Positions 3,171 through 51,050 of a DNA stretch of 64,000 nt are shown here, piece after piece. The notes beneath the pieces were generated by a model. It was given only the letters and a program-made list of their open reading frames with translations. It was not told where the DNA came from and did not search any database. Within the stretch, counting starts at the first letter, position 1, and each line of letters opens with the position of its first letter. Source of the stretch: a virus. Both the position numbers and the translations under genes were made by a program. Location: IMG/VR virus record IMGVR_UViG_3300015171_000001, positions 93,281 to 157,280 of that record. One strand, given 5' to 3'.

Positions 3171-4271
3171 ATGTTATTAGAATCTTTATCAGAATATAAT
3201 AAAAATTGTATTTCTAGATTTTGTTCATATTGTTTTAAAACTTTAAAGATTGAAAATCCTTGTAAAGTAATAATGTGTTCAGAAACTCCTAGTAAAACTA
3301 GTTTTGCATATTATGACCCGAACAACAAATCTTTAAAAGTTTCTTATAAAAATAGAAATTTGGCAGATGTTTTAAGAAGTATTGCCCACGAAATTGTTCA
3401 TTATAAACAAGATTTATTGGGAATATTACATGAGAAGAGTGGAATTACAGGAAGTAAACACGAGAATCAAGCAAATTCTCTTGCCGGAATTTTAATGAGA
3501 AATTGGGCTAAAAAAGATCCTACTATATTTAAAACATTATTATCTGAATCAAATTCTGGTATTCAATCTAATGAAAAATATTCCAAAATAAAAGAATTAA
3601 TAAAGCAAGAAGTAATTCAAGTATTAAAAATTCTTCCACAGAACGAATCATTTTACAATTTAAAAAAAAAGAATAAACAATATTCAGATATAATAGATGG
3701 GGAAGTTGGGTTAAAAGTAAAAGTTATTGATAGAGTTGTAAATTTTTATATTGTCGTTGAATTTGTTGATAATTTAAAATTGACCGACGATAATTTTATT
3801 TCTGGAATGTATTATGGAAAAGGAAATTCTATTTATTTAAAAATAAAAGCATATAATCCAGAAAGTAAAATATTTAAAGATGATATGTCTGCGATGGTTA
3901 TTGGTGGGAAAAATTATTCTAAGTTTTTAAATTTAACTCCAAGAGATGTTATTTCCTCAAAAACATTGGAAAAAGTAACAGATCACGAAACAGTACATTA
4001 TTTTAATGATAAAATAAATAAAGTGGATCATTCTAATGTTAAACCCCAAGACATAAATTCAAAATACAAATATCTTTCTGAACCAGAAGAAATTCTTGCA
4101 TATACTGCACAATTGGTAAATGATATTAAAAATTCACACGAGAAAACATTAGAAGATTTTCTTAAAAAATCCTCGTGGTGGTTAGAATATGAAAAAGAAG
4201 TTTTTCCAAAAAATCCAAAAATTAGAAGTAAAATGTTATCAAAATTAGCAAATGCATGGAATGCTAAATAA
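3171..4271 (+). CDS. Two-domain zincin-like (HExxH) protein
   Basis: RSIAHEIVHYKQ...ENQANSLAG and DHETVHYFN...YLSEPEEILAY, separated by a Glu/Lys-rich linker. Confidence 0.65.
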   Translation: MLLESLSEYNKNCISRFCSYCFKTLKIENPCKVIMCSETPSKTSFAYYDPNNKSLKVSYKNRNLADVLRSIAHEIVHYKQDLLGILHEKSGITGSKHENQANSLAGILMRNWAKKDPTIFKTLLSESNSGIQSNEKYSKIKELIKQEVIQVLKILPQNESFYNLKKKNKQYSDIIDGEVGLKVKVIDRVVNFYIVVEFVDNLKLTDDNFISGMYYGKGNSIYLKIKAYNPESKIFKDDMSAMVIGGKNYSKFLNLTPRDVISSKTLEKVTDHETVHYFNDKINKVDHSNVKPQDINSKYKYLSEPEEILAYTAQLVNDIKNSHEKTLEDFLKKSSWWLEYEKEVFPKNPKIRSKMLSKLANAWNAK

Positions 4272-4308
4272 ATCAATTTCTAAATAATATTTCATTATAT
4301 TTATAGTT

Positions 4309-7300
4309 ATGTCGATTTATATTCCAAATCAAACAACTATTGCTGGAAACCTTACTGTACAAGGAAGTATTACTGCCTCATATATTCAAGGCACAGCTTC
4401 TTATGTACAAGGAACATCTTCATATTCAACTATTGCTAATTCAGCATCATACGCATCCAGTAGTACATTGTCACAGACATCATCATATGCTTTAAATGCT
4501 GTTGGTTTAAATTCAGGAAGTTTTACAGGATCATTTACAGGATCAATATTAGGAACATCGAGTTTTTCAAATTCTTCTAGTTATGCTTTCAATTCAAATT
4601 TATCACAAACTTCTAGTTATAATTTAAATTCTATTTCGTCAAGTTATTCACTAAATTCAACGACTGCATCTTATGCATTAAATGCAGTAGGTTTAAATAG
4701 TGGATCATTCACTGGAAGTTTTTCGGGTAGTTTATTAGGAACATCTAGTTATTCATTATTATCTTTAAGTAGCAGCTATGCTTCTAGTTCTACTATTTCC
4801 CAAACGGCTTCTTATGTTTTAAATTCAATAAGTGCATCTTATTCACAAAATGCATTAACAGCTTCATACGCTCTTAATGCCATTGGATTAAATTCAGGCT
4901 CATTTACTGGTTCTTTCATAGGATCATTATTGGGAACATCTTCTTACTCAACTATTGCCAATTCTTCGTCTTATGCATCTAGTTCCACATTATCGCAAAC
5001 TTCTAGTTATGCATTAAATGCTATTGGGCTAAATACTGGGAGTTTTACAGGATCGTTTACTGGAAGTTTATTAGGATCTAGTTCATATGCATTAAATTCC
5101 AATAATAGCATAACTGCATCATATGCATCTAGTTCTATTTCTTCATCATTTTCGCAAACATCTTCATATACTAATGGAGGGGCAACGACAGGAAGTAATT
5201 CGTTTGTTGGAAATCAAACAATAACAGGAAATTTAAATGTTATTGGGACGGCATCTATATCTGTAATTTATACAAATTATATAACAGCGTCTACTGAGTA
5301 CAGTACGGGTTCAAATATTTTTGGAAATAGTCAAGCAAATACACATCAATTTACTGGAAGTGTATACATCACTGGAAGTTTAACTTCACCAAATATTACC
5401 GGATCTTTATTAGGAACATCTAGTTATGCAACTTTTTCAAATTCTTCAAGTTATGCTTCCAGTTCTACATTATCACAAACTTCTAGTTATAATTTAAATT
5501 CAGTAAGTTCATCATTTTCTACAACGGCATCTTATGCATTAAATGCTGTGGGTTTAAATTCAGGAAGTTTTACGGGATCATTTACAGGAAGTATTAATGG
5601 TTCAAGCTCTTATTCATCAAATTCTAACAATAGCATAAGTTCGTCGTTTGCATCGAGTTCTATATCTTCGTCATATACAGCAACCGCCTCAATTTCTTAT
5701 AATGTTAGTGGTAGTGGAACTGGTTCATTTACAGGATCGTTTTCTGGAACGCATACGGGGTCATATACTGGTTCTTATACAGGCTCATTTACGGGAAGTT
5801 TCACAGGATCTTTATCCGGCACTTCTTCATATTCTATTACATCTTCTTATGCATTAAATGCTGTGGGTTTAAATTCAGGAAGTTTTACTGGTAGTTTTAC
5901 TGGTTCTCACACAGGAAGTTTTAATGGATCAATGACGGGAAGTCATACAGGATCATTTACCGGATCTTATACTGGATCTTTTATTGGAAATCACACTGGA
6001 TCATATACAGGAAGTTTTAATGGATTAATGTCTGGAAGTTCAACTGGTTCTTTTACGGGATCTTATACTGGTAGTTTTACGGGAAGTTTTCTAGGAACCT
6101 CTTCATTTTCTTTAGTTGCCGGTAATTCAACAACATCATCCTATGCTTTAAATGCTGTCGGTTTAAATACTGGAAGTTTTACTGGGTCATTTACTGGATC
6201 TTTATTAGGATCTAGTTCTTATTCATTAAATTCTAATAATAGCATAAGTTCAAGTTATGCATCGAGTTCAGTATCTTCTTCATTTTCACAAACCTCGTCT
6301 ATTGGTTATAATGTTAGTGGAAGTGGAACGGGGTCATTTACAGGAAGTTTTACTGGAAGCTTTACTGGTATTATTACCGGATCATTACAAGGAACTTCAT
6401 CATTTTCATTTAATTCAGTTACTGCCTCTTATATATTAGGGGGAGCTACAGTTTCTTCTGCTTCTTATGCAACTTTCGCATCTAACGGAAGTGGCTCTTT
6501 TACTGGGTCTTTTTCTGGTTCTTTAACAGGAACATCTAGTTATGCAACGTTTGCAAATTCTGCATCATATGCATCTAGTTCTACATTGTCACAAACTTCC
6601 AGTTATAATTTAAATTCTGTAAGTTCGTCATATTCACAAACTTCTTCAACTTCTTCTTATGCATTAAATGCATTGAATTTAAATACAGGATCATTTACAG
6701 GAAGTTTCACCGGATCATTATTAGGAACATCTAGTTATTCAATAATATCTTTGAGTGGTAGTTATGCTTCCAGTAGTACATTATCACAAACTTCTAGTTA
6801 TAATTTAAATTCAGTATCAAGTTCTTTCTCAAATAATTCTATAAATAGCTTAACTTCTAGTTATGCATCAAGTTCAATATCTTCTTCATTTTCACAAACA
6901 TCATCAATTTCTTATAATGTTAGTGGAAGTGGATCGGGGTCGTTTACCGGAAGTTTTACAGGATCACTATTAGGAACTTCTTCTTATGCATTAAATTCTT
7001 TAACTTCTAGTTATTCAATTAATTCAACAACTGCGTCATATGCCTTAAATGGTGGCTCTAGTTCAACTGGAAGTTTTACTGGTTCATTTACTGGAAGTTT
7101 ATTAGGAACATCAAGTTATTCGTTAATATCTTTAAGTAGTAGTTACGCATCTAGTAGTACATTATCACAGACATCGTCATATGCTCTTAATGCAGTGGGA
7201 TTAAATAGTGGATCGTTTACTGGTTCATTTACTGGATCATTATTAGGATCTTCATCATATTCCATAACTTCTAGTTATTCTTCTACAAGCAATATATCAA

Positions 7301-8502: not shown

Positions 8503-8512
8503 AAATAAAAAT

Positions 8513-9937: not shown

Positions 9938-9940
9938 TTT

Positions 9941-12583: not shown

Positions 12584-12593
12584 CCCAAAAACA

Positions 12594-12812
12594 ATGACAA
12601 CAATAACAACATCCGCTATATTTACTATAGGACCAATAACAGACAATATGATAGACACTGTATCAGCCACAATATATTTATCTGGAACAAACATGACTTC
12701 TTTGAATATGACATTATGGTCTGGTCAAGATTATATTAATATTGGAAACTGGACAAATGACCAAGCTATTTCAAGAATTACTTCTTTATTAAATTCTGGC
12801 GCGGGTTCTTAA
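12594..12812 (+). CDS. Small hypothetical protein, possibly a fibre chaperone or tip protein
   Basis: 72 aa with LWSGQDYINIGNWTNDQAISRI, tightly following the PATR gene. Confidence 0.55.
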   Translation: MTTITTSAIFTIGPITDNMIDTVSATIYLSGTNMTSLNMTLWSGQDYINIGNWTNDQAISRITSLLNSGAGS

Positions 12813-13184: not shown

Positions 13185-13338
13185 TTATTAATACAAATAA
13201 TTGTAAAATATAATAATTAACGAGTCAAGTTAAAATAAATATTTATTGTGTTTTTTCTGAAAATTCCAGATTGAATTTTCCATATTTGAATTCCCAATCG
13301 TTGTTAATTAATTTAGAGTTATATTTATAACATACGAT

Positions 13339-14619
13339 ATGATCAGAGAAAATACATTTAAAATATATGGGAATAATCTAAATCCAAAAATTTGGAAATC
13401 TGATGGGACTATAAAAACAGAAATTAGAGAAAAATTATTAGAAATTGCTGATAATTTTTATAAAGATTTAGAATTCAATTTTCCTTATTCAGATATTTTA
13501 TTATTAGGATCTAATGCAAATTATGATTGGAATGAATTTTCAGACATAGATTTGCATATTTTAATTGATAGTAAAAAACTAGGTATTAATGATAAATATA
13601 TACAACCATTCTTGGATGGATTGAAAGATAAATGGAATATTAAACACAAAATAACTTTACACGATATTCCTGTCGAAATGTATATTCAAAATATTGATGA
13701 TAAAAATGCTGCTCTTGGAATATTTTCTTTATTGAATAATAAATGGATTAAATTTCCAAAAAAACAAAAAATTTCATTTAATAAAGAAAAAGTAAAAGAA
13801 GATTTTAAAAATATAACTGGGATCATCAATCATATTATAAATAATAATGAATTAGAAAAAGGAAAAAAATTAGAAGATAAAATTTGGGAAATTAGAAAAC
13901 AAGGATTGGGAAATAGAGGAGAATTTTCTGATGGAAATATTTTATTTAAATTATTAAGAAGTTCTGGTTATATTAAAAAACTTATAGATTTTACAAATAA
14001 GTCATATGATGAGAAAGAATCTTTAAAAGAAAAAATTATTGGAGAAGGACTTAATGATCCACATATATTTAAAGCTATATTTATGGCAGGAATTCCTGGT
14101 GCCGGAAAAACAGAAGTATCAAAATATATTAAAGGTGGAACTGGATTGAAAGTAGTAAATATTGATATTTTTAATGAATGGTATTTGAAAAATAAAAAAG
14201 CAATTGATTTTGATAAATTTGATCAATTAATTAATTCTCAATTAAGTACATATATTCAAGGACATTTAGGACTTATTATAGATAAAACTTCCAGTGATTT
14301 TGATATGACATTAAAAACCAAAGAATCTCTTGAATTATTTGGATATGATACCGCTATGATATTTGTCACTGCTGATTTAGAAATAGCAAAACAAAGAGTA
14401 ATTAATAGACAAAAAGAAAATGGGAGAGAGGTAGATACTGATTATATTGATAAAGTCCACACAGCTTTGCAAAAAAGTATAGAGAAGTATACAAAAATTT
14501 TTAAAAATAATTTATTTATTATAGATAATACAGAAAATATTGATTTTGGTAGATTAAATAAACAAGTTAATAAATTTATTAATTCCCCTGTTAAAAATCC
14601 TCTGAGCAAAATTAATTAA
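13339..14619 (+). CDS. Fusion of a Pol-beta-superfamily nucleotidyltransferase and a zeta-toxin/AAA_33-like P-loop kinase
   Basis: LLGSNANYDWNEFSDIDLH (GS...DxD) in the N-half. KAIFMAGIPGAGKT Walker A, LIIDKT and R...R...GR lid in the C-half. Confidence 0.8.
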   Translation: MIRENTFKIYGNNLNPKIWKSDGTIKTEIREKLLEIADNFYKDLEFNFPYSDILLLGSNANYDWNEFSDIDLHILIDSKKLGINDKYIQPFLDGLKDKWNIKHKITLHDIPVEMYIQNIDDKNAALGIFSLLNNKWIKFPKKQKISFNKEKVKEDFKNITGIINHIINNNELEKGKKLEDKIWEIRKQGLGNRGEFSDGNILFKLLRSSGYIKKLIDFTNKSYDEKESLKEKIIGEGLNDPHIFKAIFMAGIPGAGKTEVSKYIKGGTGLKVVNIDIFNEWYLKNKKAIDFDKFDQLINSQLSTYIQGHLGLIIDKTSSDFDMTLKTKESLELFGYDTAMIFVTADLEIAKQRVINRQKENGREVDTDYIDKVHTALQKSIEKYTKIFKNNLFIIDNTENIDFGRLNKQVNKFINSPVKNPLSKIN

Positions 14620-14620
14620 T

Positions 14621-15385
14621 ATGAAATTAAAAACACTTTTAACCGAAATTGAGTCTGAACAAGATCAAATATCAATTCTAAAAAAAGAATGCCCATTTGC
14701 TATTGAAATATATAAAAAATTTAATTATTTGTTTTTTAGAGGATCAAAAAATGTTTCTGTATTTGAAAAAATAAAACCTCTAGTTAATAGATTATCAAGA
14801 GATTCTTCTAATGTTGCTAATTTATTATTTGATAATAATAAAGACAATTCTTCCTATCAAAAAAGATCGAGTTCTATTATTTTTTCTGGAATTAAAAGAG
14901 TTGCTGAAATTTATGGGAATGTACATGTGTTTTTTCCAAAAGGAAATGCAAAAATAACATTTTCTAAAAGTGATTTTATATATACAAAATTAATAAATGT
15001 TCCTATGATATTAGATACATTTGGAAATGAGACTTTTAATTTTTTGTTTGATATTATAGCACCAGAACAAACAAAAGCAACTAGTTTTGAACAACTTGTT
15101 AAATATTTTAAAATAATAGACACGATGGACAAAAAACATTTATCCGAAATGACTTTCTCCAATACTAAATTTCAAGAATTTGTGTATAAGCCGTTTATAA
15201 AAAATAATGTTAAAAATTCATATGATTATTTTTCTAGTTTTGTTTCTAATAAAAATTTGAATTTCGTGGGGAATATATTAATGTCTGAATTGAATAATAT
15301 AAAACATCCCGAATTGTGGACACAAGAAGAAGGATATATGATAGATTTTAAACATTTTTATGATAATTTGAGAAATAAATTATGA
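14621..15385 (+). CDS. ADP-ribosyltransferase-like paralog 1
   Basis: FFRG...NLLFDNN...KRSSSIIFSG...AEIYG...FPKG...PELW, an R-S-E-type motif order. Confidence 0.55.
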   Translation: MKLKTLLTEIESEQDQISILKKECPFAIEIYKKFNYLFFRGSKNVSVFEKIKPLVNRLSRDSSNVANLLFDNNKDNSSYQKRSSSIIFSGIKRVAEIYGNVHVFFPKGNAKITFSKSDFIYTKLINVPMILDTFGNETFNFLFDIIAPEQTKATSFEQLVKYFKIIDTMDKKHLSEMTFSNTKFQEFVYKPFIKNNVKNSYDYFSSFVSNKNLNFVGNILMSELNNIKHPELWTQEEGYMIDFKHFYDNLRNKL

Positions 15386-16167
15386 TTAAGTTAAAAAATA
15401 TACTCAGAGAAATTCAAGAAGTAGATCAACATGTTGCCTTGTTACAAAGGGATTGTGGATTAGCAATTCAAAAAATTGTAAATGAACATTTGGTATTTTA
15501 TAGAGGAGAAAAGGGTTCTGAATTTTTTATAGAAAGGACCGCAAGACCTAGAGTTAGTTTGGATGGGCCCAATATAGCCAATTTATTATTTGATAACAAT
15601 CCCGATAATGTACATTATACAAAAAGAGGGAAGTGTTTGATTTTTAGTTCTAACCAAGAGACTGCTAAACAATTTGGTCATTTACATGTTTTTATTCCAA
15701 AAGGAAATCCTTCTATATCATATATAAAAAGAGATTTTGTTGACTGTTATTTAATAAATCCTCCTCTAACAATATCCTATTTGGATAATATTAGCTATAT
15801 TTTTCGTAAAATACTTGATACTCCTGTAAAAATAAGGACAGTTGATTTCATAAAGAATGCTTGTAAATTTATAGATGATCATCCATTATTTAATGAAGAA
15901 GAAGAGGCTCTATCAATGTTAAAACGTTTGTATATGACCGAGGTGCATTTTACTGAGTGGATACTTCCTGTTTTATTGGGAGACGTAAAAAATTCTTATG
16001 AATATTTTTTGGAAAGCGCGTCTTATGAAAATATTTCAGACACAAATGGAAATAAAAATTTATCAGAATTTCGCAAAACTGATATATTTGACGAATTTTG
16101 GTCAGATTGTTCTGGTTATCTTATAAACAACGATTATTTTGTAAATTCTATTTTTCCAAAATTATGA
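15382..16167 (+). CDS. ADP-ribosyltransferase-like paralog 2
   Basis: FYRG...NLLFDNN...LIFSSNQETAKQFG...IPKG...DEFW. ATGA overlap with paralog 1. Confidence 0.55.
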   Translation: MIKLKNILREIQEVDQHVALLQRDCGLAIQKIVNEHLVFYRGEKGSEFFIERTARPRVSLDGPNIANLLFDNNPDNVHYTKRGKCLIFSSNQETAKQFGHLHVFIPKGNPSISYIKRDFVDCYLINPPLTISYLDNISYIFRKILDTPVKIRTVDFIKNACKFIDDHPLFNEEEEALSMLKRLYMTEVHFTEWILPVLLGDVKNSYEYFLESASYENISDTNGNKNLSEFRKTDIFDEFWSDCSGYLINNDYFVNSIFPKL

Positions 16168-16937
16168 AATTAATGTCCATTTTAAATAATATTAGATTAG
16201 TGGAATCTTATCAGCATATTGATATAAAGGATAAGTCAAATCATGATAATTTTATAAATGAATTTCATTCAAAATGTCAAGTGGCCATAAACAAATATAA
16301 AGAAGGTGTTAGATTTTATAGAGGATTTCCGGCTCCAGAAAAAGATATTGTATATTATATAGATCCCACAAATTATACGAGAAAAGCATCAGAAACGCAT
16401 AATTATATAAATTTATTATTTGATAATAATGCAGAATTGGGTCATGTTGGTAAAAGAAGCAAATCTGTAATAACTTGTACAGATTTTGGACAATCAGATA
16501 GATATGGAAAATCATACATTATTTTTCCAATAGGAGATCCATATATGTCATATGGAAAATCTCCAGACTTTTGGTATAACTTTGAGAACACAATTGGCCA
16601 CGTCGATGTAGTAAATTCCGAAATTAAGAGTATTTTAACCGACGCGCATCAAGATACAAATGATTCGGATATTAATATATTAAAAAAATCATTGAGAAAA
16701 GCACAAGAAATTTTGAAATATAGAGGGGAAGATGAAGAAGTTCAGTATTCTACAGAAGATTATTTTACCGAAGATAAAGATATAGTTGAGAATTTTTTTG
16801 ATAGATTAAATCCACAAAAAAATGGAATAGAATCAAAAAAATTATCGACAATGGGAAGAATGACTAGAAAAGAAATTTGGACAGAAGTACCGTGTTATGC
16901 AATAGATTATTATAAAATATATCAAATATTACCATGA
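16164..16937 (+). CDS. ADP-ribosyltransferase-like paralog 3 (start reassigned to ATG 16164)
   Basis: MKLMSIL start with ATGA overlap. FYRG...NLLFDNN...KRSKSVITCT...YG...FPIG...KEIW. Confidence 0.55.
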   Translation: MKLMSILNNIRLVESYQHIDIKDKSNHDNFINEFHSKCQVAINKYKEGVRFYRGFPAPEKDIVYYIDPTNYTRKASETHNYINLLFDNNAELGHVGKRSKSVITCTDFGQSDRYGKSYIIFPIGDPYMSYGKSPDFWYNFENTIGHVDVVNSEIKSILTDAHQDTNDSDINILKKSLRKAQEILKYRGEDEEVQYSTEDYFTEDKDIVENFFDRLNPQKNGIESKKLSTMGRMTRKEIWTEVPCYAIDYYKIYQILP

Positions 16938-17707
16938 AACTAAAATCTATATTAAAAGAAGTTATATCAAAACAAGAAGTTGAACAACAAAGTTCTTTAG
17001 CAATTCAAAAGGCTAGGGAAGGAGTTTTATTATTTCGTGGGGACAAATCAGAAGAAAAATTTTTCTATAGAGATCCATCAACTAGAGTTAGAAAATCATT
17101 GTCTGGTTATAATATTGTAAATTTATTATTTGATAATAATCCACATTTAGAACATGCTCAAAAAAGAAGTAAGTCTATTATATTTTCAAGACAACAGGAC
17201 ATTGCTAATTATTATGGAAATAAATACATTGTTCTTCCAACACAAGATCCTTATATTTCTTTTATTAATGAAGACTTTGTTTATATAAAACCAAAAATAA
17301 GTGGAAGCACTATGAATAATAGTGCATTTGAATTACATTTATTATCTATAGCAAATATTTGTGGACATGATAATAGATTGTTTGATACATTTGATGAGGT
17401 TAGAGCATGTATTCAAAGTATTGATAAAAATATAAAACCAATGAAATTTGATCGCACACAGAATTATTCAATACTTTGGAATTTTTGTTTAAAAAATAAA
17501 GGACATTTATTGCAATCTATTTTTGAAGTATTTTCTCCAAAAGGACTTGGGGTAACAACAAAAAAATTATCTCAATTAACAAAGTCTGATAATTTCTTAG
17601 AAGGTTGGACTGAACAATCATGTTGGTTTATTAATAATGTTGAATTAAAAAATGAGTTTGGGGTAAAATTTAAAGATAATAAAAAAACCTCGTCAAAATA
17701 TGTTTGA
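16934..17707 (+). CDS. ADP-ribosyltransferase-like paralog 4
   Basis: LFRG...NLLFDNN...KRSKSIIFSR...ANYYG...LEGW. ATGA overlap. Confidence 0.55.
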   Translation: MKLKSILKEVISKQEVEQQSSLAIQKAREGVLLFRGDKSEEKFFYRDPSTRVRKSLSGYNIVNLLFDNNPHLEHAQKRSKSIIFSRQQDIANYYGNKYIVLPTQDPYISFINEDFVYIKPKISGSTMNNSAFELHLLSIANICGHDNRLFDTFDEVRACIQSIDKNIKPMKFDRTQNYSILWNFCLKNKGHLLQSIFEVFSPKGLGVTTKKLSQLTKSDNFLEGWTEQSCWFINNVELKNEFGVKFKDNKKTSSKYV

Positions 17708-24081: not shown

Positions 24082-24283
24082 ATTTTTATATTTCGTTACC
24101 CAAACCATTTATTTGATTTGTTGATAAAATCCTATCATGGTTTGTTTATTTTTGATATGGGGTATAGTACCCATATTGGATTAACCGGACACAATTTGTC
24201 CATTTTTTCTAATTTAAGATCCAATTATTGAAAAAAATTGATAAAAATCATTTTTATGATATAATTTTTATATTTATATTTAT

Positions 24284-24706
24284 ATGTTATTTTTTAATGA
24301 AGAAACTGATGTTGCTATATTTAAGTCCAAATGGCGTAAACCATTTTCTATTCTTAATAAGATAAATCCTATATGGTGGTTTTTAAATGAAGACGATCCT
24401 ACGCCAACACCAGATTATGCACCAACCAATCCACAATGGTTAAGAAATACACAGTGGAACTTAAGAAATCCTCTTCACAATTTTACTTTTTATGTAATAG
24501 GAGTCAGTGATAGAGACAATGTTCGTTTTGGAAATTCTCCAACAAATGTTTTTGATAAAAAATTAAAGTGGACATGGAGCGTAACTTATGTAAAATATTT
24601 ATATCTTCCATTTATAAGTTATGTTGGATCTTCGATGGCATGGTATATTGGGTGGAGAGATGGTGGTAATTTTGGATTAAAAATAACAAGTGCCAGCAAT
24701 GTTTAA
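24284..24706 (+). CDS. Trp-rich hypothetical protein
   Basis: NPIWWFLNEDD, WNLRNPLHNFTFYVIG, YIGWR, with an upstream TATTTATA. Confidence 0.7.
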   Translation: MLFFNEETDVAIFKSKWRKPFSILNKINPIWWFLNEDDPTPTPDYAPTNPQWLRNTQWNLRNPLHNFTFYVIGVSDRDNVRFGNSPTNVFDKKLKWTWSVTYVKYLYLPFISYVGSSMAWYIGWRDGGNFGLKITSASNV

Positions 24707-24711
24707 AATTT

Positions 24712-25365
24712 ATGCCGAAGAATATAATTAAAAAATTTGAAAAGGAATATGGTAAAGATAAGGGGAAATCTATTTATTATGCCACGGCCAACAAATTAAA
24801 AAGAAATCCAGAAACATTTAAGAAAGATATTTCAGAAAGCAATAGCTCAATGGAAGTTCCTCAGATTTCTGGAGATGTGGTAAAGTTTATTACAGGAAAA
24901 TCAAAAGAAGAATCTCAAGATATTTACATGAAATATATTCTTCCAAGGTCTGTCGAGATTGAAAAAGAAATTAAAAACGCAACGGGAGCAGATGAAAAAC
25001 ATGATATTATGCATAAAATAGTTAAGAAAATATTGTTAGATAAAGGTGTTATTAAAGATAATTCCCTTAAAGAATCAGAGTTAAAAAAGCACATTAAAAC
25101 AATTATTAAAGAAGTTTTATTAGAAACTGATGTGAATAATGCAGAAGAAAAAGAGGAAGTTAAAATTGGAAAAGATATTTTAATAAGATGTGGTAATATT
25201 CTTAAATATAATGATTTGGATGAAGTTGAGGATGTAGAAAAAATACAGGAGTTAGCTAAAAAATTAATAGAAATACATGGTGAAAAAGTAAAACAAGATT
25301 TTGATCCAACTGGAAGACTTAAAAATTATCATCTTGGATTTAAAAAAGGAAACAATCAATTATAA
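24712..25365 (+). CDS. Putative internal head protein / polyprotein
   Basis: N-terminal FEKEYGKDKGKSIYYATANK module and internal LKESELKKHIKTIIKEVLLE tag. Confidence 0.55.
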   Translation: MPKNIIKKFEKEYGKDKGKSIYYATANKLKRNPETFKKDISESNSSMEVPQISGDVVKFITGKSKEESQDIYMKYILPRSVEIEKEIKNATGADEKHDIMHKIVKKILLDKGVIKDNSLKESELKKHIKTIIKEVLLETDVNNAEEKEEVKIGKDILIRCGNILKYNDLDEVEDVEKIQELAKKLIEIHGEKVKQDFDPTGRLKNYHLGFKKGNNQL

Positions 25366-25393
25366 AAATTTTTAAAATATACTTATACATAAT

Positions 25394-26668
25394 ATGAAAC
25401 GATCAGAATTAAAAGAATTAGTAAAACAGGTAATTTCGGAGCAAAAATTTAAAGATGCTCCAAAGGATAAAAAAGTAAAACCAGAACCAACAATTTCAAA
25501 AAATGATATTGGACAGGAAAAAGCTGTCAGAGAATTTCTATCATCAAGAAAGAATTATACATCACATTGTGAGCAATTGGAAGATGTTGCTAAATCATTA
25601 AAAATAAATGTTAAAGATAAGACTGGAAAGAAATTATCAGATGCTATTATAGATGAATTAAATAAGGATAAAAAGAATGTATCAAAGGTTTTCAAAGCTC
25701 TTAAGAGTAAGAAATTAATAACAGAATCTATAGATCAATTGATAGTTAATAAACATTTGAGATTGATTAAAGTGGTATTATTTAAAATGGGCGCAGTCAA
25801 AAATCCTATGGAAGTGGATGTTAAAAAGGACATTTCTTATTATGTTGAACCAGAAGATTTTACTGAATTTTGTGAAAAATTAAAACTCACTCCTCCAATG
25901 TATGATGATTCATTATCAATTGACGAATATGCTAATTTGTGGGCCGAAGAAGATGAAGAAAAAAACACACCAGAATCAACTTTAAAAACTCCAGAAATTA
26001 GCCCAGAAGAAAGAGAAGTAAGAAGATTTTTATCTACAAGAAAAGATACAAATAATCATATTGAACAACTGTTGCAAATATCTCATTTACTTGGAATAAG
26101 TGTAAAGGGAAGTGATATTGATGATTTATTTAAAGTTATTTCGGATAAATTAGATCAAGATCCAATTTCTATTGAAAAAGTATTTGATTTTTTAAAGCAA
26201 ACAAAATTGATTAAAGAAATTAAAAAAATATCTTTAATAGATTTAAGAAATATTATTAAAGAAGTGATTTCTTCTGAAATGGAAGAATCCACGATTAGGA
26301 AACCTAATAAACCATACCCAAGGATTGCTGTTGGACACGAGGCACACGAAACTTCCACAACTAGAAGTTCTTTGGAAAAAGCTAAAAAATTAAATAAAAT
26401 ATATGGGAAACCTACAGAAATTTATTTACAATCTATGCCGCCAGAAGAAAAAGGACCTTTATTTTTAGTCACTGCGACATATGGTGATAAACAACACTCT
26501 TTTGAAGGATTTTCTTGGGGATATAAAGGAGAAGGTTCGTTAGGATTAAAAGAATATTTGTTAAGTGTTGGAATTCCAGAAGGTATTGATAAAATTTATG
26601 AGTTTGATCAGAAATCAAATTATTTATATACCAATGAAGATGGATCATGGCATCTAGAAAGAGAATAA
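25394..26668 (+). CDS. Putative internal head polyprotein with a duplicated domain
   Basis: MKRSELKELVKQVISE start, two copies of VR.FLS.RK....H.EQL...KVF..LK..KLI.E, and internal LRNIIKEVISSE. Confidence 0.55.
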   Translation: MKRSELKELVKQVISEQKFKDAPKDKKVKPEPTISKNDIGQEKAVREFLSSRKNYTSHCEQLEDVAKSLKINVKDKTGKKLSDAIIDELNKDKKNVSKVFKALKSKKLITESIDQLIVNKHLRLIKVVLFKMGAVKNPMEVDVKKDISYYVEPEDFTEFCEKLKLTPPMYDDSLSIDEYANLWAEEDEEKNTPESTLKTPEISPEEREVRRFLSTRKDTNNHIEQLLQISHLLGISVKGSDIDDLFKVISDKLDQDPISIEKVFDFLKQTKLIKEIKKISLIDLRNIIKEVISSEMEESTIRKPNKPYPRIAVGHEAHETSTTRSSLEKAKKLNKIYGKPTEIYLQSMPPEEKGPLFLVTATYGDKQHSFEGFSWGYKGEGSLGLKEYLLSVGIPEGIDKIYEFDQKSNYLYTNEDGSWHLERE

Positions 26669-27021
26669 TGAAAATTGGTATTAAAGAATTAAAGCAAATT
26701 ATTAAAGAAGTTATTTCTGAAAATAATTTGGGAGAAATGGTTCATAATTCAAGAACTGGTGTTGATTGGATTGGAGAAATGGAAAAGGCGGTCAATGCCG
26801 CACCACAACTTAATAATAATCAAGAATTAAAAAAAGTCTTGTTAAAAGCAATTGATGAACTTCATATTGGATCATTAAGAGGAAAATCAGACAAACTTCA
26901 AAATTGGTTAAATCTATTAAAGAAAACATTATCTTCTCCAAATTTTCAAAAAAACTGGAGAGTTTATAATTCAGAATTGACTAATTTTGCCGCCGCCATC
27001 ACAAAATTTGCTCGTTCTTGA
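26668..27021 (+). CDS. Putative internal head protein (start reassigned to 26668)
   Basis: TAATG overlap with the upstream gene. MKIGIKELKQIIKEVISE tag. Confidence 0.55.
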   Translation: MKIGIKELKQIIKEVISENNLGEMVHNSRTGVDWIGEMEKAVNAAPQLNNNQELKKVLLKAIDELHIGSLRGKSDKLQNWLNLLKKTLSSPNFQKNWRVYNSELTNFAAAITKFARS

Positions 27022-41540: not shown

Positions 41541-41579
41541 ATACTCGCTATCAATATAAAGTTGATAGCGAGTATTTTT
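41541..41579 (+). terminator. Rho-independent terminator
   Basis: ATACTCGCTATCAA-7-TTGATAGCGAGTAT followed by a T run. Confidence 0.8.
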
Positions 41580-41593
41580 ATTTAGGAGAAAAT

Positions 41594-42763: not shown

Positions 42764-42777
42764 AGTATTTTTTGGTG

Positions 42778-42813
42778 AGAAGCTACTGATTGATAATTTC
42801 GGTAGCTTCTTTT
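42778..42813 (+). terminator. Rho-independent terminator
   Basis: AGAAGCTAC...GTAGCTTCT followed by TTT. Confidence 0.7.
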
Positions 42814-42867
42814 ATTTAAAATATATTGGTTTTATGTTTAAAATGTAGTAATATTTAATTACAGGTT

Positions 42868-43929: not shown

Positions 43930-44011
43930 ATTTTAATATAAATAAAAATCCAAATTAAATTATGTACAATAGGTTACATATGTCCAACAGCAAAGAAAAA
44001 TAATAAGAAAT

Positions 44012-45334: not shown

Positions 45335-45359
45335 TTTTTATCTGTTTCCATCCATATAA

Positions 45360-45806
45360 ATATGGACGGCAACATATTTCAAAACTATAGAACAATTATT
45401 AAATCAAAAACCATTTTTACCATTTAAAAATTTAGTTAATGCTCATACACTAACACAAATAGATATTCTTATTAAAAAATATACCAAATATTTTTTAATA
45501 AATTTGAGAAAAGAAATGGTGGTAAATTTAATAAAATATAATGTAGATGGAGATTGGCTTTTTAGATTGGAAGAAAGTAAAAAATATAGAAAAGATGGAT
45601 TTTCTTTGGAATCTTGTAAATTAAGATATGGAGAAATAATCGGAACAAAATTATATGAAGATAGAAGAAAATCCATAATAACAAAAAGAGAAAATTACAC
45701 AGATATTACATGGAAAGAACTGTGTAATAAAAAAATAAGTAATTTAGGATTGAATGGATATATTAATAAATATGGAAAAGAATTAGGAGAAAAAAATTAT
45801 GCGTGA
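45360..45806 (+). pseudogene. Truncated endonuclease-like ORF between the split-intein halves
   Basis: Frame is open from 45360 but ATG 45362 is out of frame. LRYGEIIG and NKYGKELGEK repeats, no nuclease domain before the stop. Confidence 0.55.
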
Positions 45807-46257
45807 ACATGGATTAAATAATAAGGATTTTATATTAGATGAAATTGAGAGTATAGAATTAATGGGAGATCAAGAAACAATAGATATTACTGTAGAAGAT
45901 ACACATATGTTTTTTGCAAATGATATATATACTCACAATTCTGGTTCTGAACAAGATATTGTTCAGGCAGGAAGTATTGCAGATTCTTATAGAAAAATTA
46001 TGACAGCAGATTTTGTATTGTCTCTTTCTAGAAAGATAAATGATAAAGAAAATAGCACTGCTAGGTTTCATGTTATCAAAAATAGATTTGGTTCGGATGG
46101 AATGACATTTCCAGCAATTATGAATACTTCTAATGGTGATATCAGATTATTTAAGTCTGATTCAGAAGAAGGAATGAATATTCAATCAAAAATGAACGAT
46201 GTAGAAAATTCAGTAAAAAAGATGTTAAAAGATAAATGGAACAGTAGAGAAGAGTGA
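45799..46257 (+). CDS. dnaB: Split-intein C-fragment (47 aa, 45799-45939) fused to the helicase C-terminal part
   Basis: DEIESIE..G..ETIDITVEDTHMFFANDIYTHN|S, then IADSYRKIMTADF and IKNRFG. Confidence 0.93.
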   Translation: MREHGLNNKDFILDEIESIELMGDQETIDITVEDTHMFFANDIYTHNSGSEQDIVQAGSIADSYRKIMTADFVLSLSRKINDKENSTARFHVIKNRFGSDGMTFPAIMNTSNGDIRLFKSDSEEGMNIQSKMNDVENSVKKMLKDKWNSREE

Positions 46258-46357
46258 GTAAGTAGTTTTGAAAAAAATAAAGGGGTTATATTGGTAGAAA
46301 TTAAAAAAATTTATATTAGAAAATATAGTTTGATTGGGACTACTTATAAGTCCATAA

Positions 46358-48625: not shown

Positions 48626-48630
48626 ATATT

Positions 48631-49686
48631 ATGAAAACCGTTTTAAATTTAATAAATGTGCCAGTAGAAGAACGCATAATGTTTTTAGGACCAGAATTGT
48701 CCTTGCAGAGATTTGATCAAGTAAAATATCCAAAATTTCTAGAAATTTATGAAAAAATGGAGACTTTTAGATGGCAACCATCTAGAATAAATTTAAATAA
48801 AGATAGAATTGATTATGAAAAAATGAGTGATGTTGAATTACATGTTTTTCAATCTAATATCAGATGGCAGACAGCAGTAGATGCTTGTTTAAGTAGATCT
48901 ATTCATAATATTTCTCAATACATAACTAATTGTGAACTTGAAATTTGTTGTACGTCATGGGCATCGTTTGAAACGCTTCACTCATTTTCGTATACTTTTT
49001 TGTTTAAAAATGTTACAAAAGATGCGACAAAATTCTTTGATTCGATATTAGAAGATCCAATGATTATTGAGAGAGCAAAAAATATTACTAGTGCATATGA
49101 TTCTTTTTTTGGCAATCCAACAGATATAAAACAAACTATTTTTGATGCAATTTTAAATACTCAAGCAGTTGAGGGAGTTAGTTTTTATACTAGTTTTATA
49201 TGTTCTTTTTATTTTGGTGCAAAAGAAAAAATGACTGGATCTGCTGATATTATAAAAGAAATTGCCAGAGATGAAGCATTACATGTTTCTATTACGCAAA
49301 ATATATTTAAAAATTGGAAAACACATCCAGAAGAGGGATTTCAAGAATTATTGAAAAGAAATGAAGAAAAAGTATATGAATTTTATAAATTAATTGTTAA
49401 GCAAGAATCTGATTGGACTGATTATCTTTTTAGTAAAGGTTCATTATTGGGACTTAATTCCGAAATATTAAAATCATATACCGAATATATTGCCAATAAT
49501 CGACTTGCTAGTATGGGATATAAAAAGATATTTAAAACTAAAAATGATCCCACTGTTGGATGGTCTGCTGGATATTTTGATTCTTCTATTTCTCAACCAG
49601 CACCACAAGAAACAGAAATAACTTCTTATCTATCTAATGCGGCGAATACTGATTTGAATTTGAATGAATTTGAAGGATTATTATAA
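48631..49686 (+). CDS. nrdB: Ribonucleotide reductase class Ia beta subunit
   Basis: FETLHSFSY, EGVSFY, DEALH, APQETEITSY. Confidence 0.95.
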   Translation: MKTVLNLINVPVEERIMFLGPELSLQRFDQVKYPKFLEIYEKMETFRWQPSRINLNKDRIDYEKMSDVELHVFQSNIRWQTAVDACLSRSIHNISQYITNCELEICCTSWASFETLHSFSYTFLFKNVTKDATKFFDSILEDPMIIERAKNITSAYDSFFGNPTDIKQTIFDAILNTQAVEGVSFYTSFICSFYFGAKEKMTGSADIIKEIARDEALHVSITQNIFKNWKTHPEEGFQELLKRNEEKVYEFYKLIVKQESDWTDYLFSKGSLLGLNSEILKSYTEYIANNRLASMGYKKIFKTKNDPTVGWSAGYFDSSISQPAPQETEITSYLSNAANTDLNLNEFEGLL

Positions 49687-49798
49687 ATGTATGTAATATC
49701 AAGATTAGTCATAAAAAATAATATTTTATAAAATTCGTGTAAAAAGTTATTTATTAAAAATAAGTTTAATATTTATTTTAAATGATAAATTTCACACA

Positions 49799-50137
49799 AT
49801 GAGTCCTGAATTAATTACAGCATTAACAACAACTGCAACAGCATTAATAACCGCAATATCAACATGGTGGTTATCCAAGCCAAAAGACAAAAACGATTAT
49901 TTTAAAACTTTACTTGAAGCAAATGAGAAATTTAGAGAGGAAGTTAGGGAAGATTTAAAGTCTGCAAAAGCAGAAATAGAAAAATATAAAGAGAAAATTG
50001 AAGAATTGGATGCTTCTATATCTAGTTATTGCGATAAATTACTTGAATATGAACGACTTATAAAGACTTACGAATCACAAATATCCGAAAATAAAGAGGA
50101 AATAAGTTATTTAAGAAATAAATATGAAACAAAGTAA
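49799..50137 (+). CDS. Membrane-anchored coiled-coil protein (holin-like)
   Basis: N-terminal ELITALTTTATALITAISTWWLS followed by a long heptad coiled coil. Confidence 0.45.
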   Translation: MSPELITALTTTATALITAISTWWLSKPKDKNDYFKTLLEANEKFREEVREDLKSAKAEIEKYKEKIEELDASISSYCDKLLEYERLIKTYESQISENKEEISYLRNKYETK

Positions 50138-50537
50138 TGTGCAAGAGGTTCTTTTAGTGGATGACGATCCTATTTTTCTAAAATTATTTTCCATTTATTT
50201 TAAGGAAAATTTTCCCAATTTTAATATAATAAAAACAACTTCTCCAATAGAAGCTCTTAAAATATTTAGAAATAAGATAAAAAAGAAAACCCCAATTACA
50301 TTTTCTGTTATTGATTGGAAAATGCCAGAAATTACTGGAGAATTTTTATCAGTCATGTTTAAAAAGGAATCTGATAAAATTAAAACAGTGTTATTGACAG
50401 GTTCTAGTGATTCTGTATTTTTAAAACATTTCTCGGCATATAAATTTGATTTGATATTATCAAAAAGAGATAAAATAGAGGATATATTTGAAAAATTGAG
50501 AAATCTGATAAAAGTGGAAGATTGTTGTCAGAAATAA
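50124..50537 (+). CDS. Stand-alone response-regulator receiver (CheY-like)
   Basis: VLLVDDD, IDWKMPEITG (phospho-acceptor Asp), LLTG, SK. Confidence 0.85.
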   Translation: MKQSNVQEVLLVDDDPIFLKLFSIYFKENFPNFNIIKTTSPIEALKIFRNKIKKKTPITFSVIDWKMPEITGEFLSVMFKKESDKIKTVLLTGSSDSVFLKHFSAYKFDLILSKRDKIEDIFEKLRNLIKVEDCCQK

Positions 50538-50573
50538 TGTTTTTAATGTGTTCGCGCAATATTTATATAGATT

Positions 50574-51050
50574 ATGGCAATAAAGACTTTAAGACAGTTG
50601 GTTAACGAAATTACACAATCTACTTCTGAACACCAAAGAAGTGTAAATAAATATGTTCAAGAAATTGAAAAAGTTTTGAAGAAAGAGATGGGAGACTATT
50701 GTTCGGTAAATGTTGATGATAGTCAAGTGATTATACTGGATGATGGTGAGTCTGGAAATGCATTTGATGTTCATATTCGAGTTTTATCAAGAAACTTATT
50801 TTCACTAGAATGTTTTATTGGTGGAAAACATGGTAAAAAGTATACAGAAACTAATCTTACTATGGACGATCTTTTAGATTGGATCAAGAATGAACTTAAA
50901 CAAGAAGTTGAAGAATTGGACAAGTCTACTGAAGATGATTTGGATGAAAAGGGTTATGATGGTTCTGAAAAAGGAAAAAAGAAAGAAGATAAATCTTTTA
51001 CAATTTCAAGCAAAGATTTAAATAGAAAAGCAGGCGGTCCACAAAAATAA
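50574..51050 (+). CDS. Hypothetical acidic protein, possible internal head protein
   Basis: MAIKTLRQLVNE tag, with TATTTATA 6 nt upstream. Confidence 0.55.
   Translation: MAIKTLRQLVNEITQSTSEHQRSVNKYVQEIEKVLKKEMGDYCSVNVDDSQVIILDDGESGNAFDVHIRVLSRNLFSLECFIGGKHGKKYTETNLTMDDLLDWIKNELKQEVEELDKSTEDDLDEKGYDGSEKGKKKEDKSFTISSKDLNRKAGGPQK

Follow-up and report, generated by a model that had tools for sequence, protein, structure and literature searches.

Why do otherwise unrelated proteins of one uncultured phage begin with nearly the same short peptide? We analyzed a 64,000-nt stretch of viral DNA (the window; positions 93,281 to 157,280 of IMG/VR record IMGVR_UViG_3300015171_000001) together with the whole 157-kb, T4-like contig that contains it. 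A core L-K-x-h-h-x-E peptide (h, hydrophobic) stands at the N terminus of 11 ORFs of this contig and lies inside two more, frequently in an extended form, L-K-x-L-I-K-E-[CV]-[IL]-x-E. The peptide is probably this lineage's version of the T4 capsid-targeting sequence, in which case the proteins that carry it would enter the head, lose the peptide to the prohead protease, and be injected with the DNA. The mechanism itself is already known; what is new is the lineage and the cargo, and the interest of the case lies in its breadth, its cargo, and a set of testable cut sites.

A Recurrent Peptide Tag

How far does the motif exceed chance? An iteratively built weight matrix, with which the whole 157-kb contig was scanned, gave 13 to 14 matches of at least 23 bits—all on the coding strand and within real ORFs—and a runner-up of only 13.6 bits. 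With a leave-one-out matrix, eight sites scored above the best match in five shuffled proteomes, four more fell near the null maximum (12 to 15 bits vs. null maxima of 15 to 16), and the site at genome coordinate 68207 was weak (7 bits). As a null for the N termini, residues 2 to 22 of every protein were shuffled 2000 times: LK.[LIVM][LIVM].E occurs in 7 N termini vs. 0.17 expected and a looser core in 11 vs. 0.71 expected, counts that 0 of the 2000 shuffles reached. De novo EM discovery on the N termini returned the same sites as its top matches. The preliminary description of this DNA had named an equal frequency in replication proteins as evidence against its reading; in the matrix scan of the contig, those proteins carried no tag.

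Among the 13 sites, 12 have Glu at motif position 8 and 9 have it at position 12, with [LIV]-x before each. A Cys after K-E is invariant in six long-form tags; this Cys of the head-module tags is replaced by Val in the window, and short-form tags lack Cys altogether. The minimal site, [LIV]-x-E, is common (737 in the proteome vs. 661 expected), and single internal h-x-E sites taken by themselves therefore carry little weight. Most tag copies differ from one another by synonymous codons, and the DNA upstream of them is unrelated. Because the codons vary synonymously, selection acts on the peptide.

The sites are collected in Table 1. Every peptide quoted in the preliminary description is present in its ORF, and the full set is larger than was recognized there, with seven more strong sites upstream of the window, on ORFs in or near the head module. 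Its eight N-terminal examples are of unequal strength: by the matrix, those at 14621, 16934, 25394, and 26668 are strong and those at 3171, 16164, and 50574 weak (the peptides at 3171 and 16164 have no matrix support), while that at 15382 scores low but consists of the same ten residues that begin head-module ORFs of relatives. Among the internal examples, those in ORF 24712 and at aa 283 to 295 of ORF 25394 are strong, whereas the junction peptide of ORF 13339 reaches only 2.5 bits; this peptide exists, at aa 227 to 236 rather than at the position first assigned to it. The carriers had been called unrelated, which does not hold for four of the eight N-terminal examples, these being paralogs, but does for all other carriers, which show no similarity when compared without their first 25 aa. 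The start codon of ORF 16164 was checked, and its ATG overlaps the preceding stop as ATGA; the start of ORF 26668 has a 1-nt overlap with the preceding stop.

Table 1. Tag sites, candidate sites, and associated elements (window coordinates unless marked; aa, amino acids)
Feature	Position	ORF	Strand	Score or basis
Candidate 8-aa N-terminal tag, double-HExxH protein	3171..3194	3171-4271	+	Position in G003 homolog
Candidate internal site (ends L-L-S-E), end of domain 1	3528..3548	3171-4271	+	G003 homology stops at aa 121
Second tag-like helix	3585-3614	3171-4271	+	Only 6.9 bits
TATTTATA element, 9 nt upstream of ATG	13322..13329	13339-14619	+	
Nucleotidyltransferase/P-loop kinase linker, ends I-G-E before G-L-N-D	14017..14046	13339-14619	+	Pfam and PHROG domain limits (10-225, 228-422)
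Short-form 9-aa N-terminal tag (ends L-T-E), ART-like paralog 1	14621..14647	14621-15385	+	25.8 bits; tag family-wide
10-aa N-terminal tag, ART-like paralog 2	15382..15411	15382-16167	+	8.8 bits
Degenerate N-terminal tag, ART-like paralog 3	16164..16205	16164-16937	+	Aligned to paralogs' tags
9-aa N-terminal tag, ART-like paralog 4	16934..16960	16934-17707	+	27.9 bits
Further TATTTATA copies	24271-24278, 24277-24284, 50560-50567			
Long-form internal tag, aa 123-138	25078..25125	24712-25365	+	30.0 bits; 18.1 leave-one-out
16-aa long-form N-terminal tag	25394..25441	25394-26668	+	28.3 bits
End of internal repeat 1 (K-K-L-I-T-E)	25709..25726	25394-26668	+	Repeat alignment
End of internal repeat 2 (K-L-I-K-E)	26204-26218	25394-26668	+	Repeat alignment
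Long-form internal tag, aa 283-295	26240..26278	25394-26668	+	24.6 bits
18-aa long-form N-terminal tag	26668..26721	26668-27021	+	23.8 bits
Possible tag (ends L-V-N-E)	50574..50609	50574-51050	+	Loose core only; 5.2 bits
Seven strong sites upstream of the window	41457, 63266, 63861, 68207, 77567, 77972, 85985 (genome coordinates)			

Head Genes and the Tag in Relatives

Does the tag keep company with head genes? A gp21-type prohead protease is encoded by ORF 74605-76284 (genome coordinates; PF03420 above the cut-off and PHROG 207), which is split by an intein-like insert and starts ...L-L-I-E, as in T4 gp21. The capsid protein (a PHROG 138 match) has an N-terminal domain that aligns with that of T4 gp23, and its Q-L-[LV]-x-E before [AS], kept across 40 relatives, aligns with the gp23 cut site, F-L-T-E before A. 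Tagged genes lie within the head module, both here and in relatives. In 16 relatives a short-form tag sits between the protease and capsid genes, on ORFs differing in size and sequence; the first ten residues of 15382 are identical on the small ORF between these genes in G003 and L036, and close variants begin the equivalent small ORF in other relatives. Own tag variants are also found on several small ORFs beside the head genes of relative G001 and of the cultured Flavobacterium phage immuto, and in a set of 1,983 clade ORFs the loose motif is about nine times denser in residues 1 to 10 than elsewhere. Furthermore, 21 plus-strand copies of TATTTATA lie 1 to 50 nt upstream of start codons, mostly of structural genes (the prohead protease included), and ORF 50574 is preceded by this element as structural genes are. 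The preliminary description had read the peptide as a T4-type targeting and cleavage tag, and at the level of sequence every testable prediction of that reading—protease, capsid site, gene position, absence from replication proteins, location outside the folded domain, and homologs—was borne out.

Candidate Cargo and Fused Genes

What might the tag carry? Likely cargo in the window comprises four ADP-ribosyltransferase-like (ART-like) paralogs, a nucleotidyltransferase–kinase fusion (ORF 13339), a double-HExxH protein (ORF 3171), and the products of ORFs 24712, 25394, and 26668 (fold unknown). The paralogs—14621, 15382, 16164, and 16934 (E 1e-9 to 1e-31)—are part of a family that comprises 2,966 representative clusters and whose members nearly always start M-[RK]-h-x-x-h-h-x-E. 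An h-h-x-E falls within the first 16 aa of 103 of 146, whereas a control window placed internally contains it in 6 of 146. On other viral contigs, arrays of family and non-family ORFs carry one phage-specific tag, in some cases nearly that of T4 itself (IPI, IPII, and IPIII from NC_000866).

An AF2 model of ORF 16934 (pLDDT 91) gives the first 10 residues a pLDDT of 63 vs. >90 for the fold and so places the tag outside the folded domain. A Foldseek search of the PDB with the paralog model returned nothing at E ≤ 0.001. In a wide VIA-align search the top matches were Arr (Z 6.3, rmsd 3.8, 96 aligned) and diphtheria toxin (Z 4.9). Many of the top 50 had the ART fold (e.g., Tpt1, PARPs, DarT), but every Z value lay below the 7 to 8 typical of best matches by chance. 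Across 123 family members, R35, S81, and E223 vary little or not at all; they follow the sequence Arg ... Ser ... Glu and are candidate catalytic residues. No Pfam family, and so no curated ART model, matched the paralogs at E ≤ 0.01; their sole profile matches are PHROGs 12810 and 11975, of unknown function, and as far as we found the family is so far uncharacterized.

Fused genes place tag-like peptides at internal boundaries. ORF 13339 has no clear tag at its own N terminus, and eight stand-alone homologs of its kinase begin with a tag whose final Glu aligns to the linker Glu of ORF 13339. The kinase half is 35.5% identical over 245 aa to gp53 of phage Atu_ph07, a fused homolog (87 kDa) that was most abundant in gel band 9 (about 21 kDa), beside 21- to 22-kDa proteins. 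Residues 1 to 121 of ORF 3171 align, from residue 1, to aa 629 to 754 of a multidomain protein (1,294 aa) of relative G003, in which a similar L-L-x-x-x-L-S-E peptide is internal. Thus, the 13339 junction and the 3171 N terminus are positional equivalents of homologs' N-terminal tags or internal linkers. In ORF 25394, which contains two repeats (aa 25 to 111 vs. 188 to 275; alignment score 142 vs. 38 ± 6.6 shuffled), the tag at aa 283 to 295 directly precedes a C-terminal module (about aa 300 to 424) that resembles stand-alone, mostly viral proteins of 106 to 146 aa (ESM Atlas structure search; TM 0.60 to 0.73, hit-normalized). Because internal sites fall where stand-alone homologs start with a tag, it is plausible that the head protease would cut fused cargo into separate modules; the positional equivalence and the migration of gp53 support such cutting indirectly.

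Comparison with Known Systems

How does this tag compare with those of better-studied phages? In T4, the first 10 aa of IPIII are enough for head targeting (PMC9026906), and the tag may allow T4-like phages to load varied proteins (PMC3012670). As in T4, a 9- to 18-aa N-terminal peptide ending hydrophobic-hydrophobic-x-Glu is found on unrelated proteins, the phage encodes a protease of the gp21 type as well as a capsid protein of the gp23 type that has this site form, and the cargo genes are variable and often in arrays. Because the N-terminal peptide is built like the T4 sequence, head loading, trimming, and injection would be the most likely fate of its carriers. The consensus here, L-K-x-h-h-x-E, is not that of T4; it is often doubled and has Cys or Val following K-E. 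Sites are also more numerous (at least 13 strong ones, whereas T4 has three IPs plus Alt), larger and mostly enzyme-like proteins make up the cargo, and the tag, known from sequence, is found inside ORFs as well. Alt of T4 is an ADP-ribosyltransferase that is packaged in the head and has a short propeptide at its N terminus. The paralogs may recall it in their ART-like fold signal and their conserved Arg, Ser, and Glu; however, the fold similarity is weak (best Z 6.3), and the paralogs are about 255 aa long vs. 682 aa and have no detectable sequence homology to Alt.

In phiKZ-like phages the cleavage site is small residue-x-Glu, not hydrophobic-x-Glu, and we know of no single short address tag defined as common to all of their cargo. 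There is nonetheless a likeness, since in the giants 201phi2-1, phiKZ, and SPN3US a gp21-related protease cuts propeptides after Glu, and many head-internal proteins, including paralog families, are processed (PMC9026906). The window paralogs match gp53-gp60 of the Agrobacterium jumbo phage Atu_ph07, likewise tandem and translationally coupled, and all members checked there (gp53-gp60) share a short starting tag that closes with L-[TN]-E. That tag has a form of its own, M-[RK]-W-x-x-L-[TN]-E, and the Atu_ph07 kinase is fused to an ART-like domain, whereas the kinase of ORF 13339 is fused to a nucleotidyltransferase. Atu_ph07 gp53-65 appear in a published virion proteome (ESI-MS/MS) with 3 to 31 unique peptides each (PMC6102473, Table S5), from a PEG-purified preparation in which a few replication proteins were also detected, with 1 to 3 peptides (PMC6102473). 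This is strong evidence that gp53-65 are associated with virions, though it does not prove that they lie within heads. They were described as hypothetical virion proteins by Attai et al. 2018 (PMC6102473); searched for the paralogs, their text does not discuss the array.

Alternative Explanations

Could the pattern arise without head targeting? In so AT-rich a genome (28% G+C), the motif might be a compositional artefact of Lys/Ile/Leu/Glu-rich N termini plus paralogy, and four of the preliminary examples are indeed paralogs; the composition-keeping N-terminal shuffles, the leave-one-out scores above the shuffled-proteome maxima, and the unrelated carriers make this hardly credible, and we reject it. 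It is very unlikely that the tag is a by-product of DNA cassette shuffling or local duplication, i.e., a recombination-promoting 5' gene end without targeting function. The internal tag of ORF 25394 and the tag of ORF 26668 do have about 20 of 21 nt in common (counted from codons), codon identity at shared residues is in slight excess (291 vs. 251 expected), and homology in the tag-coding DNA may help T-even phages to swap genes for internal proteins. However, the synonymous differences and unrelated upstream DNA of most copies speak against shuffling as the cause, as does a peptide kept across phages of far-diverged DNA, and shuffling would in any case be compatible with a targeting function.

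A modifying enzyme (e.g., a radical-SAM/SPASM enzyme acting on the conserved Cys) might instead recognize the tag as its leader. Three radical-SAM ORFs in the genome, together with the invariance of that Cys, fit this idea, but the enzyme ORFs lie at 12 to 20 kb and the tagged genes at 41 to 120 kb (most at 63 to 120 kb), the Cys is missing from window and short-form tags alike, and the short-form tags belong to a family that has tags matching the T4 capsid-targeting sequence and members found in virions; we consider such a role highly improbable. In phage RB43, an insensitive search with the tag alignment returned no match. Nor is it likely that the tag is a helix with another destination (baseplate or tail interior, chaperone, or membrane) or a general oligomerization element, not removed by the protease. 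Its character as a generic amphipathic K/E-rich helix would suit such a role, ORFs 24712-27021 adjoin baseplate-hub genes, and in relatives a loosely similar helix begins the large terminase, a protein that is not cargo of the head. Yet the same tags, in this phage as in its relatives, occur on head-module genes that lie between those for the protease and the capsid protein, they all end in h-h-x-E, the form of the capsid protein's maturation site, and they are too charged for a membrane or signal peptide.

Proposed Mechanism and Implications

How would a capsid-targeting tag work in this phage? A short amphipathic N-terminal helix, often doubled with a second h-x-E, would bind the scaffolding core during prohead building, and given such binding any carrier would be enclosed in the prohead. 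The gp21-type protease would cut after the Glu of h-h-x-E, the site form of the capsid protein, releasing mature cargo in the head, ready for ejection with the DNA. At fused-cargo junctions, where the tag or a minimal h-x-E end persists, the protease would probably separate the modules. Core binding, cleavage, packaging, and injection are steps that we infer for the phage studied here. A broader reading, to which we give slightly less than an even chance, is that a general "address plus scissors" grammar is common to T4-like and jumbo phages, one in which a protease site can take the place of a gene boundary and vice versa. The same enzyme modules (ART-like, zeta-toxin-like P-loop kinase, nucleotidyltransferases, HExxH) would travel either singly, each as a tagged gene within a coupled array, or joined in polyproteins that reach 2,645 aa and have h-x-E ahead of S/G at every junction; the head protease would resolve these into an injected multi-enzyme toolkit.

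The tag offers a simple sequence rule for spotting injected proteins in uncultured phages, as well as new tags, validated by nature, with which non-coli phages could be loaded with foreign proteins, and it suggests that the head protease matures fused cargo genes. It also singles out, as virion cargo, a very large family of ART-like proteins, which, if the broader grammar holds, would be the largest unrecognized family of injected phage effectors. If the tags act as in T4, this phage and the large aquatic clade around it would inject ready-made enzymes with their DNA, and such injection would likely be a first line of host takeover or counter-defense.

A Short Peptide Tag Recurs at the Starts of Mostly Unrelated Proteins

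Is the short peptide that recurs in several predicted proteins (core L-K-x-h-h-x-E, where h is hydrophobic; ORFs are named by their start in the window) a genuine motif? All of the peptides quoted in the preliminary description were found at the ORFs to which it had assigned them, although the peptide at the domain junction of ORF 13339 had to be repositioned, to aa 227–236. A 13-column weight matrix, built iteratively and run over all six frames of the contig, gave 14 matches of at least 23 bits, every one within a real plus-strand ORF, with the next best at 13.6 bits. With a leave-one-out matrix, eight sites exceeded the top score of five shuffled proteomes. For an N-terminal null, residues 2–22 of each protein were shuffled 2,000 times with their Lys-rich composition preserved. 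The core LK.[LIVM][LIVM].E was observed at 7 N-termini versus 0.17 expected and a looser form at 11 versus 0.71, and none of the 2,000 shuffles equaled the observed count for either. De novo (EM) motif discovery over the N-termini converged on the tag already proposed, its best matches being the same sites. These sites follow the consensus [EQK]-L-K-x-[LI]-I-[KR]-E-[CV]-[IL]-x-E. The two forms of the tag distinguished earlier are both real, yet they constitute one motif rather than two, as the short one (M-K-L-K-x-[IL]-L-x-E) corresponds to the opening half of the long one.

Not every proposed site is equally strong. The tags suggested for ORFs 16164 and 50574, the N-terminus of 3171, and the 13339 junction fell below significance as matrix matches; the latter two are supported by comparison with homologs despite their scores. 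The tag of ORF 15382 reaches only 8.8 bits; the ten residues with which this ORF begins, however, also open a small head-module ORF, unchanged, in two relatives (G003 and L036), and near variants occur in others. A 23-bit match within the nucleotidyltransferase domain of 13339 (aa 24–36) is probably a chance helix.

The tagged proteins had been described as unrelated. Four of them (14621, 15382, 16164, and 16934) are in fact paralogs, at E values of 1e-9 to 1e-31, but the description holds for all others, which show no mutual similarity after deletion of the first 25 residues; the unrelated carrier families number about ten. Composition and paralogy are thus excluded as sources of the motif by the shuffles and the unrelated carriers. 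Tag copies vary freely at synonymous positions, and the DNA upstream of them is unrelated; therefore, it is the peptide that is conserved, not the DNA. DNA-level shuffling may have helped the tag to spread, as the near identity in DNA of the tags at 26240 and 26686 would suggest, but it is no substitute for a peptide function.

Features of the tag system (genome coordinates are those of the whole contig)
Feature	Coordinates	Location
Strong N-terminal sites	ORFs 14621, 16934, 25394, 26668	window
Strong internal site	ORF 24712, aa 123–138	window
Strong internal site	ORF 25394, aa 283–295	window
Seven more strong N-terminal sites	genome 41457, 63266, 63861, 68207, 77567, 77972, 85985	outside window
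Large terminase	genome 65106–68159	head module, just upstream of window
Portal	genome 68588–72808	head module, just upstream of window
S77 prohead protease	genome 74605–76284	head module, just upstream of window
Capsid protein	genome 80020–81645	head module, just upstream of window
Tagged ORFs	63248, 63849	just before terminase
Tagged ORFs	77549, 77954	between protease and capsid genes
Tagged ORFs	85386, 85973	just after head genes
TATTTATA copies before genes	window 2597, 4298, 13322, 20318, 21402, 24271, 33197, 39318, 50560	12 more upstream of window

The Tag Ending Matches the Probable Cut Site of the Head Protease

The source, an IMG/VR virus contig (157,280 bp, 28% G+C; the window is its final 64 kb), belongs to a distant T4-like myovirus. 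Judged by its capsid protein, its closest relatives in culture are Flavobacterium phage vB_FspM_immuto (52% identity) and Microcystis phage Mel-JY01, with Rhodothermus phage RM378 more distant. Among the genes of the window are the last part of the tail sheath gene, fiber genes, and those for the tail tube and the baseplate hub; the window also encodes a ssDNA-binding protein, a RecA-like recombinase, ribonucleotide reductase, rIIA/rIIB, and a split DNA polymerase. ORFs outside the window are simple calls made for this analysis.

The prohead protease matches PF03420 and PHROG 207, and its N-terminus reads ...L-L-I-E, like that of T4 gp21. At its N-terminus, the capsid protein has a domain that can be aligned with its counterpart in T4 gp23; the gp23 cut site, F-L-T-E before A, then falls on Q-L-[LV]-x-E before [AS] here and in 40 relatives. 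Because of this alignment, the protease's preference for hydrophobic-hydrophobic-x-Glu is very probably conserved; the same ending is common to every tag. In T4, replacing the final Glu of the tag with Asp prevents processing, whereas targeting is retained. On the question raised earlier of whether the tag is just as frequent in replication proteins, no replication or nucleotide-metabolism protein scored above 14 bits.

What else might such a peptide be? A radical-SAM enzyme leader was rejected, being without gene linkage in this phage and leaving the Cys-free tags unexplained. An address for another destination, or an assembly helix that stays uncleaved, would agree with the baseplate-side position of the 24712–27021 group but is at odds with the copies in the head module and with the protease-site ending, both of which favor a capsid-targeting sequence. 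Loose matches alone are not diagnostic, since the large terminase, which is not head cargo, starts in relatives (e.g., at 58144 in the complete relative G001 and 696 in locus L010) with a tag look-alike, L-K-x-[IV]-I-x-E-E-Y. Judged by eye, this start is presumably like an internal helix of T4 gp17.

The head genes have peculiarities of their own. The protease (559 aa), large terminase (1,017 aa), and portal (1,406 aa) are all far longer than in relatives, and each carries intein- or HNH-like inserts; the PF03420 match of the protease falls in two pieces (aa 12–75 and 446–532). An HNH-type homing endonuclease ORF also lies at window 1723–2451, between the tail sheath gene and structural genes. 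The conserved tail of the protease (genome 76180–76284, and the protease ORFs of 56 relatives) has a site of the form [VM]-N-E before S and then an amphipathic ...I-I-x-E-[IL] helix similar to the cargo tag. This tail may be a core-docking peptide of the protease itself, a role also suspected for the two ends of T4 gp21.

Tags Are Conserved, with Variation, among Relatives

How widespread is the tag among related phages? A capsid-protein search returned 596 related viral loci, 80 of which were kept. When the 13-column tag alignment was used as the query, three weak matches turned up in five relatives, whereas RB43, T4, and Atu_ph07 gave no match; this search was too insensitive, so the whole sequences of the relatives were scanned by script. 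Across 1,983 ORFs from the kept loci and two complete relatives, the loose motif is ~9 times denser in residues 1–10, and 5 times denser in residues 11–20, than elsewhere. The top N-terminal motif in G001 is its own variant, M-K-x-S-E-L-x-x-I-I-R-E-E, borne by no fewer than five small ORFs, of which two lie immediately before the capsid gene. In 16 relatives, the protease and capsid genes flank small ORFs of differing sizes and sequences that start with the short form M-[IL]-K-L-[KR]-x-[IL]-L-x-E. In the cultured phage immuto, gp072, gp080, gp094, and gp095 bear the long form, and gp076, gp077, and gp092 have a second leader in common.

The Four Paralogs Belong to a Large Tagged Family

The relatives of the four paralogs were reached only by profile search and then via a central member: tblastn of ORFs 14621 and 25394 against 50,697 phage records found no match, and a word-index homolog search with ORF 16934 returned only itself. 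The profile of the four matched 2,966 representative clusters (1,192 at E ≤ 1e-10), whose members are mostly stand-alone proteins of about 255 aa. The h-h-x-E ending occurs within the first 16 residues of 103 of 146 non-self representatives, versus 6 of 146 in an internal control window, and 49 of the 146 have the exact start M-[KR]-h-x-x-h-h-x-[EQD]. In viral loci, 129 members were found across 39 loci, with a maximum of nine per locus. At several of these, adjoining non-family ORFs bear the same phage-specific tag. At two, the tag is M-[IK]-T-F-K-Q-F-[LI]-x-E, which is almost that of T4 itself (NC_000866; M-K-T-Y-Q-E-F-I-A-E in IPII and IPIII, M-K-T-F-K-E-F in IPI).

The cultured Agrobacterium jumbo phage Atu_ph07 carries the family as a tandem array, gp53–gp60, all starting M-[RK]-W-x-x-L-[TN]-E. 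The proteome of its PEG-purified virions lists gp53 through gp65, with 3–31 unique peptides each (PMC6102473, Table S5). A virion study of RsoM2USA, covering ten gel bands only, does not mention the family.

What fold do the paralogs adopt? The AlphaFold model of ORF 16934 has a pLDDT of 91, with the first ten residues at 63, which places the tag outside the fold. Foldseek with this model found no match in the PDB. An exhaustive structural comparison put ADP-ribosyltransferase (ART)-fold proteins on top (Arr, Z 6.3; diphtheria toxin, Z 4.9; and many further rows, including Tpt1, PARPs, and DarT), with scores too low to settle the fold; the ART assignment is weak. Across the family, Arg35, Ser81, and Glu223 show little or no variation.

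A common cassette logic, in which a zeta-toxin-like kinase accompanies a tandem array of ART-like paralogs with overlapping starts and stops, is seen at window 13339–17707 and at 35–48 kb in Atu_ph07; the first phage is aquatic (157 kb), the second a jumbo phage from soil (490 kb). The fusion partner of the kinase differs, being a nucleotidyltransferase here and an ART-like domain in Atu_ph07.

Tag-Like Peptides Mark the Junctions of Fused Proteins

Are the internal copies equivalent to the N-terminal ones? In eight stand-alone proteins homologous to the kinase half of 13339, the last Glu of an N-terminal tag precedes [GS]-[IV]-x-D-x-G-[IL]-[FL]-K-A. The equivalent Glu in 13339 is aa 236 (I-G-E), in the linker after the nucleotidyltransferase domain, and that in Atu_ph07 gp53 (V-T-E) comes after the ART-like domain. 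The 13339 junction is therefore the positional equivalent of the tag. Residues 1–121 of ORF 3171 align from residue 1 to aa 629–754 of a 1,294-aa multidomain protein of G003, in which a similar L-L-x-x-x-L-S-E peptide lies internally; the homology stops where 3171 reads ...L-L-S-E. ORF 25394 (window 25394–26668) contains a tandem repeat of about 87 aa (aa 25–111 and 188–275, z about 15). Both repeats end in K-L-I-[TK]-E, and an internal long tag and a C-terminal module follow. This module resembles small stand-alone, mostly viral proteins in the ESM Atlas; a homolog search with it found nothing, nor did a Pfam search of eight tagged ORFs outside the window.

There are other fused forms. The 87-kDa gp53 of Atu_ph07, whose candidate junctions lie after aa 239 or 252, 458, and 582, peaks in abundance in gel band 9, alongside 21- to 22-kDa proteins, and a metagenomic protein of 2,645 aa (P0009) has one strong and several weaker ART-like domain copies, each preceded by h-x-E before S, along with other repeated modules. 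Taken together, the kinase junction, ORFs 3171 and 25394, and these other fusions make cleavage of fused cargo by the head protease plausible.

ORF 3171 (window 3171–4271; 366 aa) has two HExxH motifs (aa 83–87 and 273–277) in halves separated by a tag-like linker, and only weak matches to metalloprotease families. The multidomain G003 protein (182017–185901) is encoded immediately before the head module. It combines a cytidylyltransferase-like N-terminus with three further parts, namely a hydrophobic stretch rich in Gly and Ala, the HExxH domain seen in ORF 3171, and a K-x-D-G domain of ligase-like type, and h-x-E peptides occur at several of the junctions.

Some Tagged Genes Share an Upstream Element with Virion Genes

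Regions upstream of genes show no enrichment of the canonical T4 late promoter, TATAAATA, but they are enriched in its complement-like form, the octamer TATTTATA. Twenty-one plus-strand genes have a copy 1–50 nt upstream of their ATG, often just 3–5 nt away, versus about 3 expected from its 82 genomic copies. The genes it precedes are mostly structural (fibers, baseplate, sheath, tube, and prohead protease); it also precedes 13339 (head of a five-gene cassette), 24284 (head of the 24712–27021 group), 63248, and 50574. We infer that TATTTATA is probably the late-promoter element of this lineage. Its proximity to start codons suggests very short or absent leaders, and its distribution fits coexpression of cargo with virion genes.

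Discussion

The capsid-targeting sequence of T4 and its removal by gp21 are established, and the idea that this tag lets T4-like phages load varied proteins is already published (PMC9026906, PMC3012670). A limited literature search found no paper on the paralog family or on the tags described here, and none on phage Mel-JY01. What our analysis adds is a divergent tag consensus found in a large aquatic clade, a tag-bearing ART-like family that is very large and for which one cultured phage provides virion evidence, and comparative evidence pointing to tags that persist at fusion junctions. The tagged proteins of this phage are predicted from their sequences to be packaged, cleaved, and injected, and the predicted set of enzyme-like cargo would be far larger than before.
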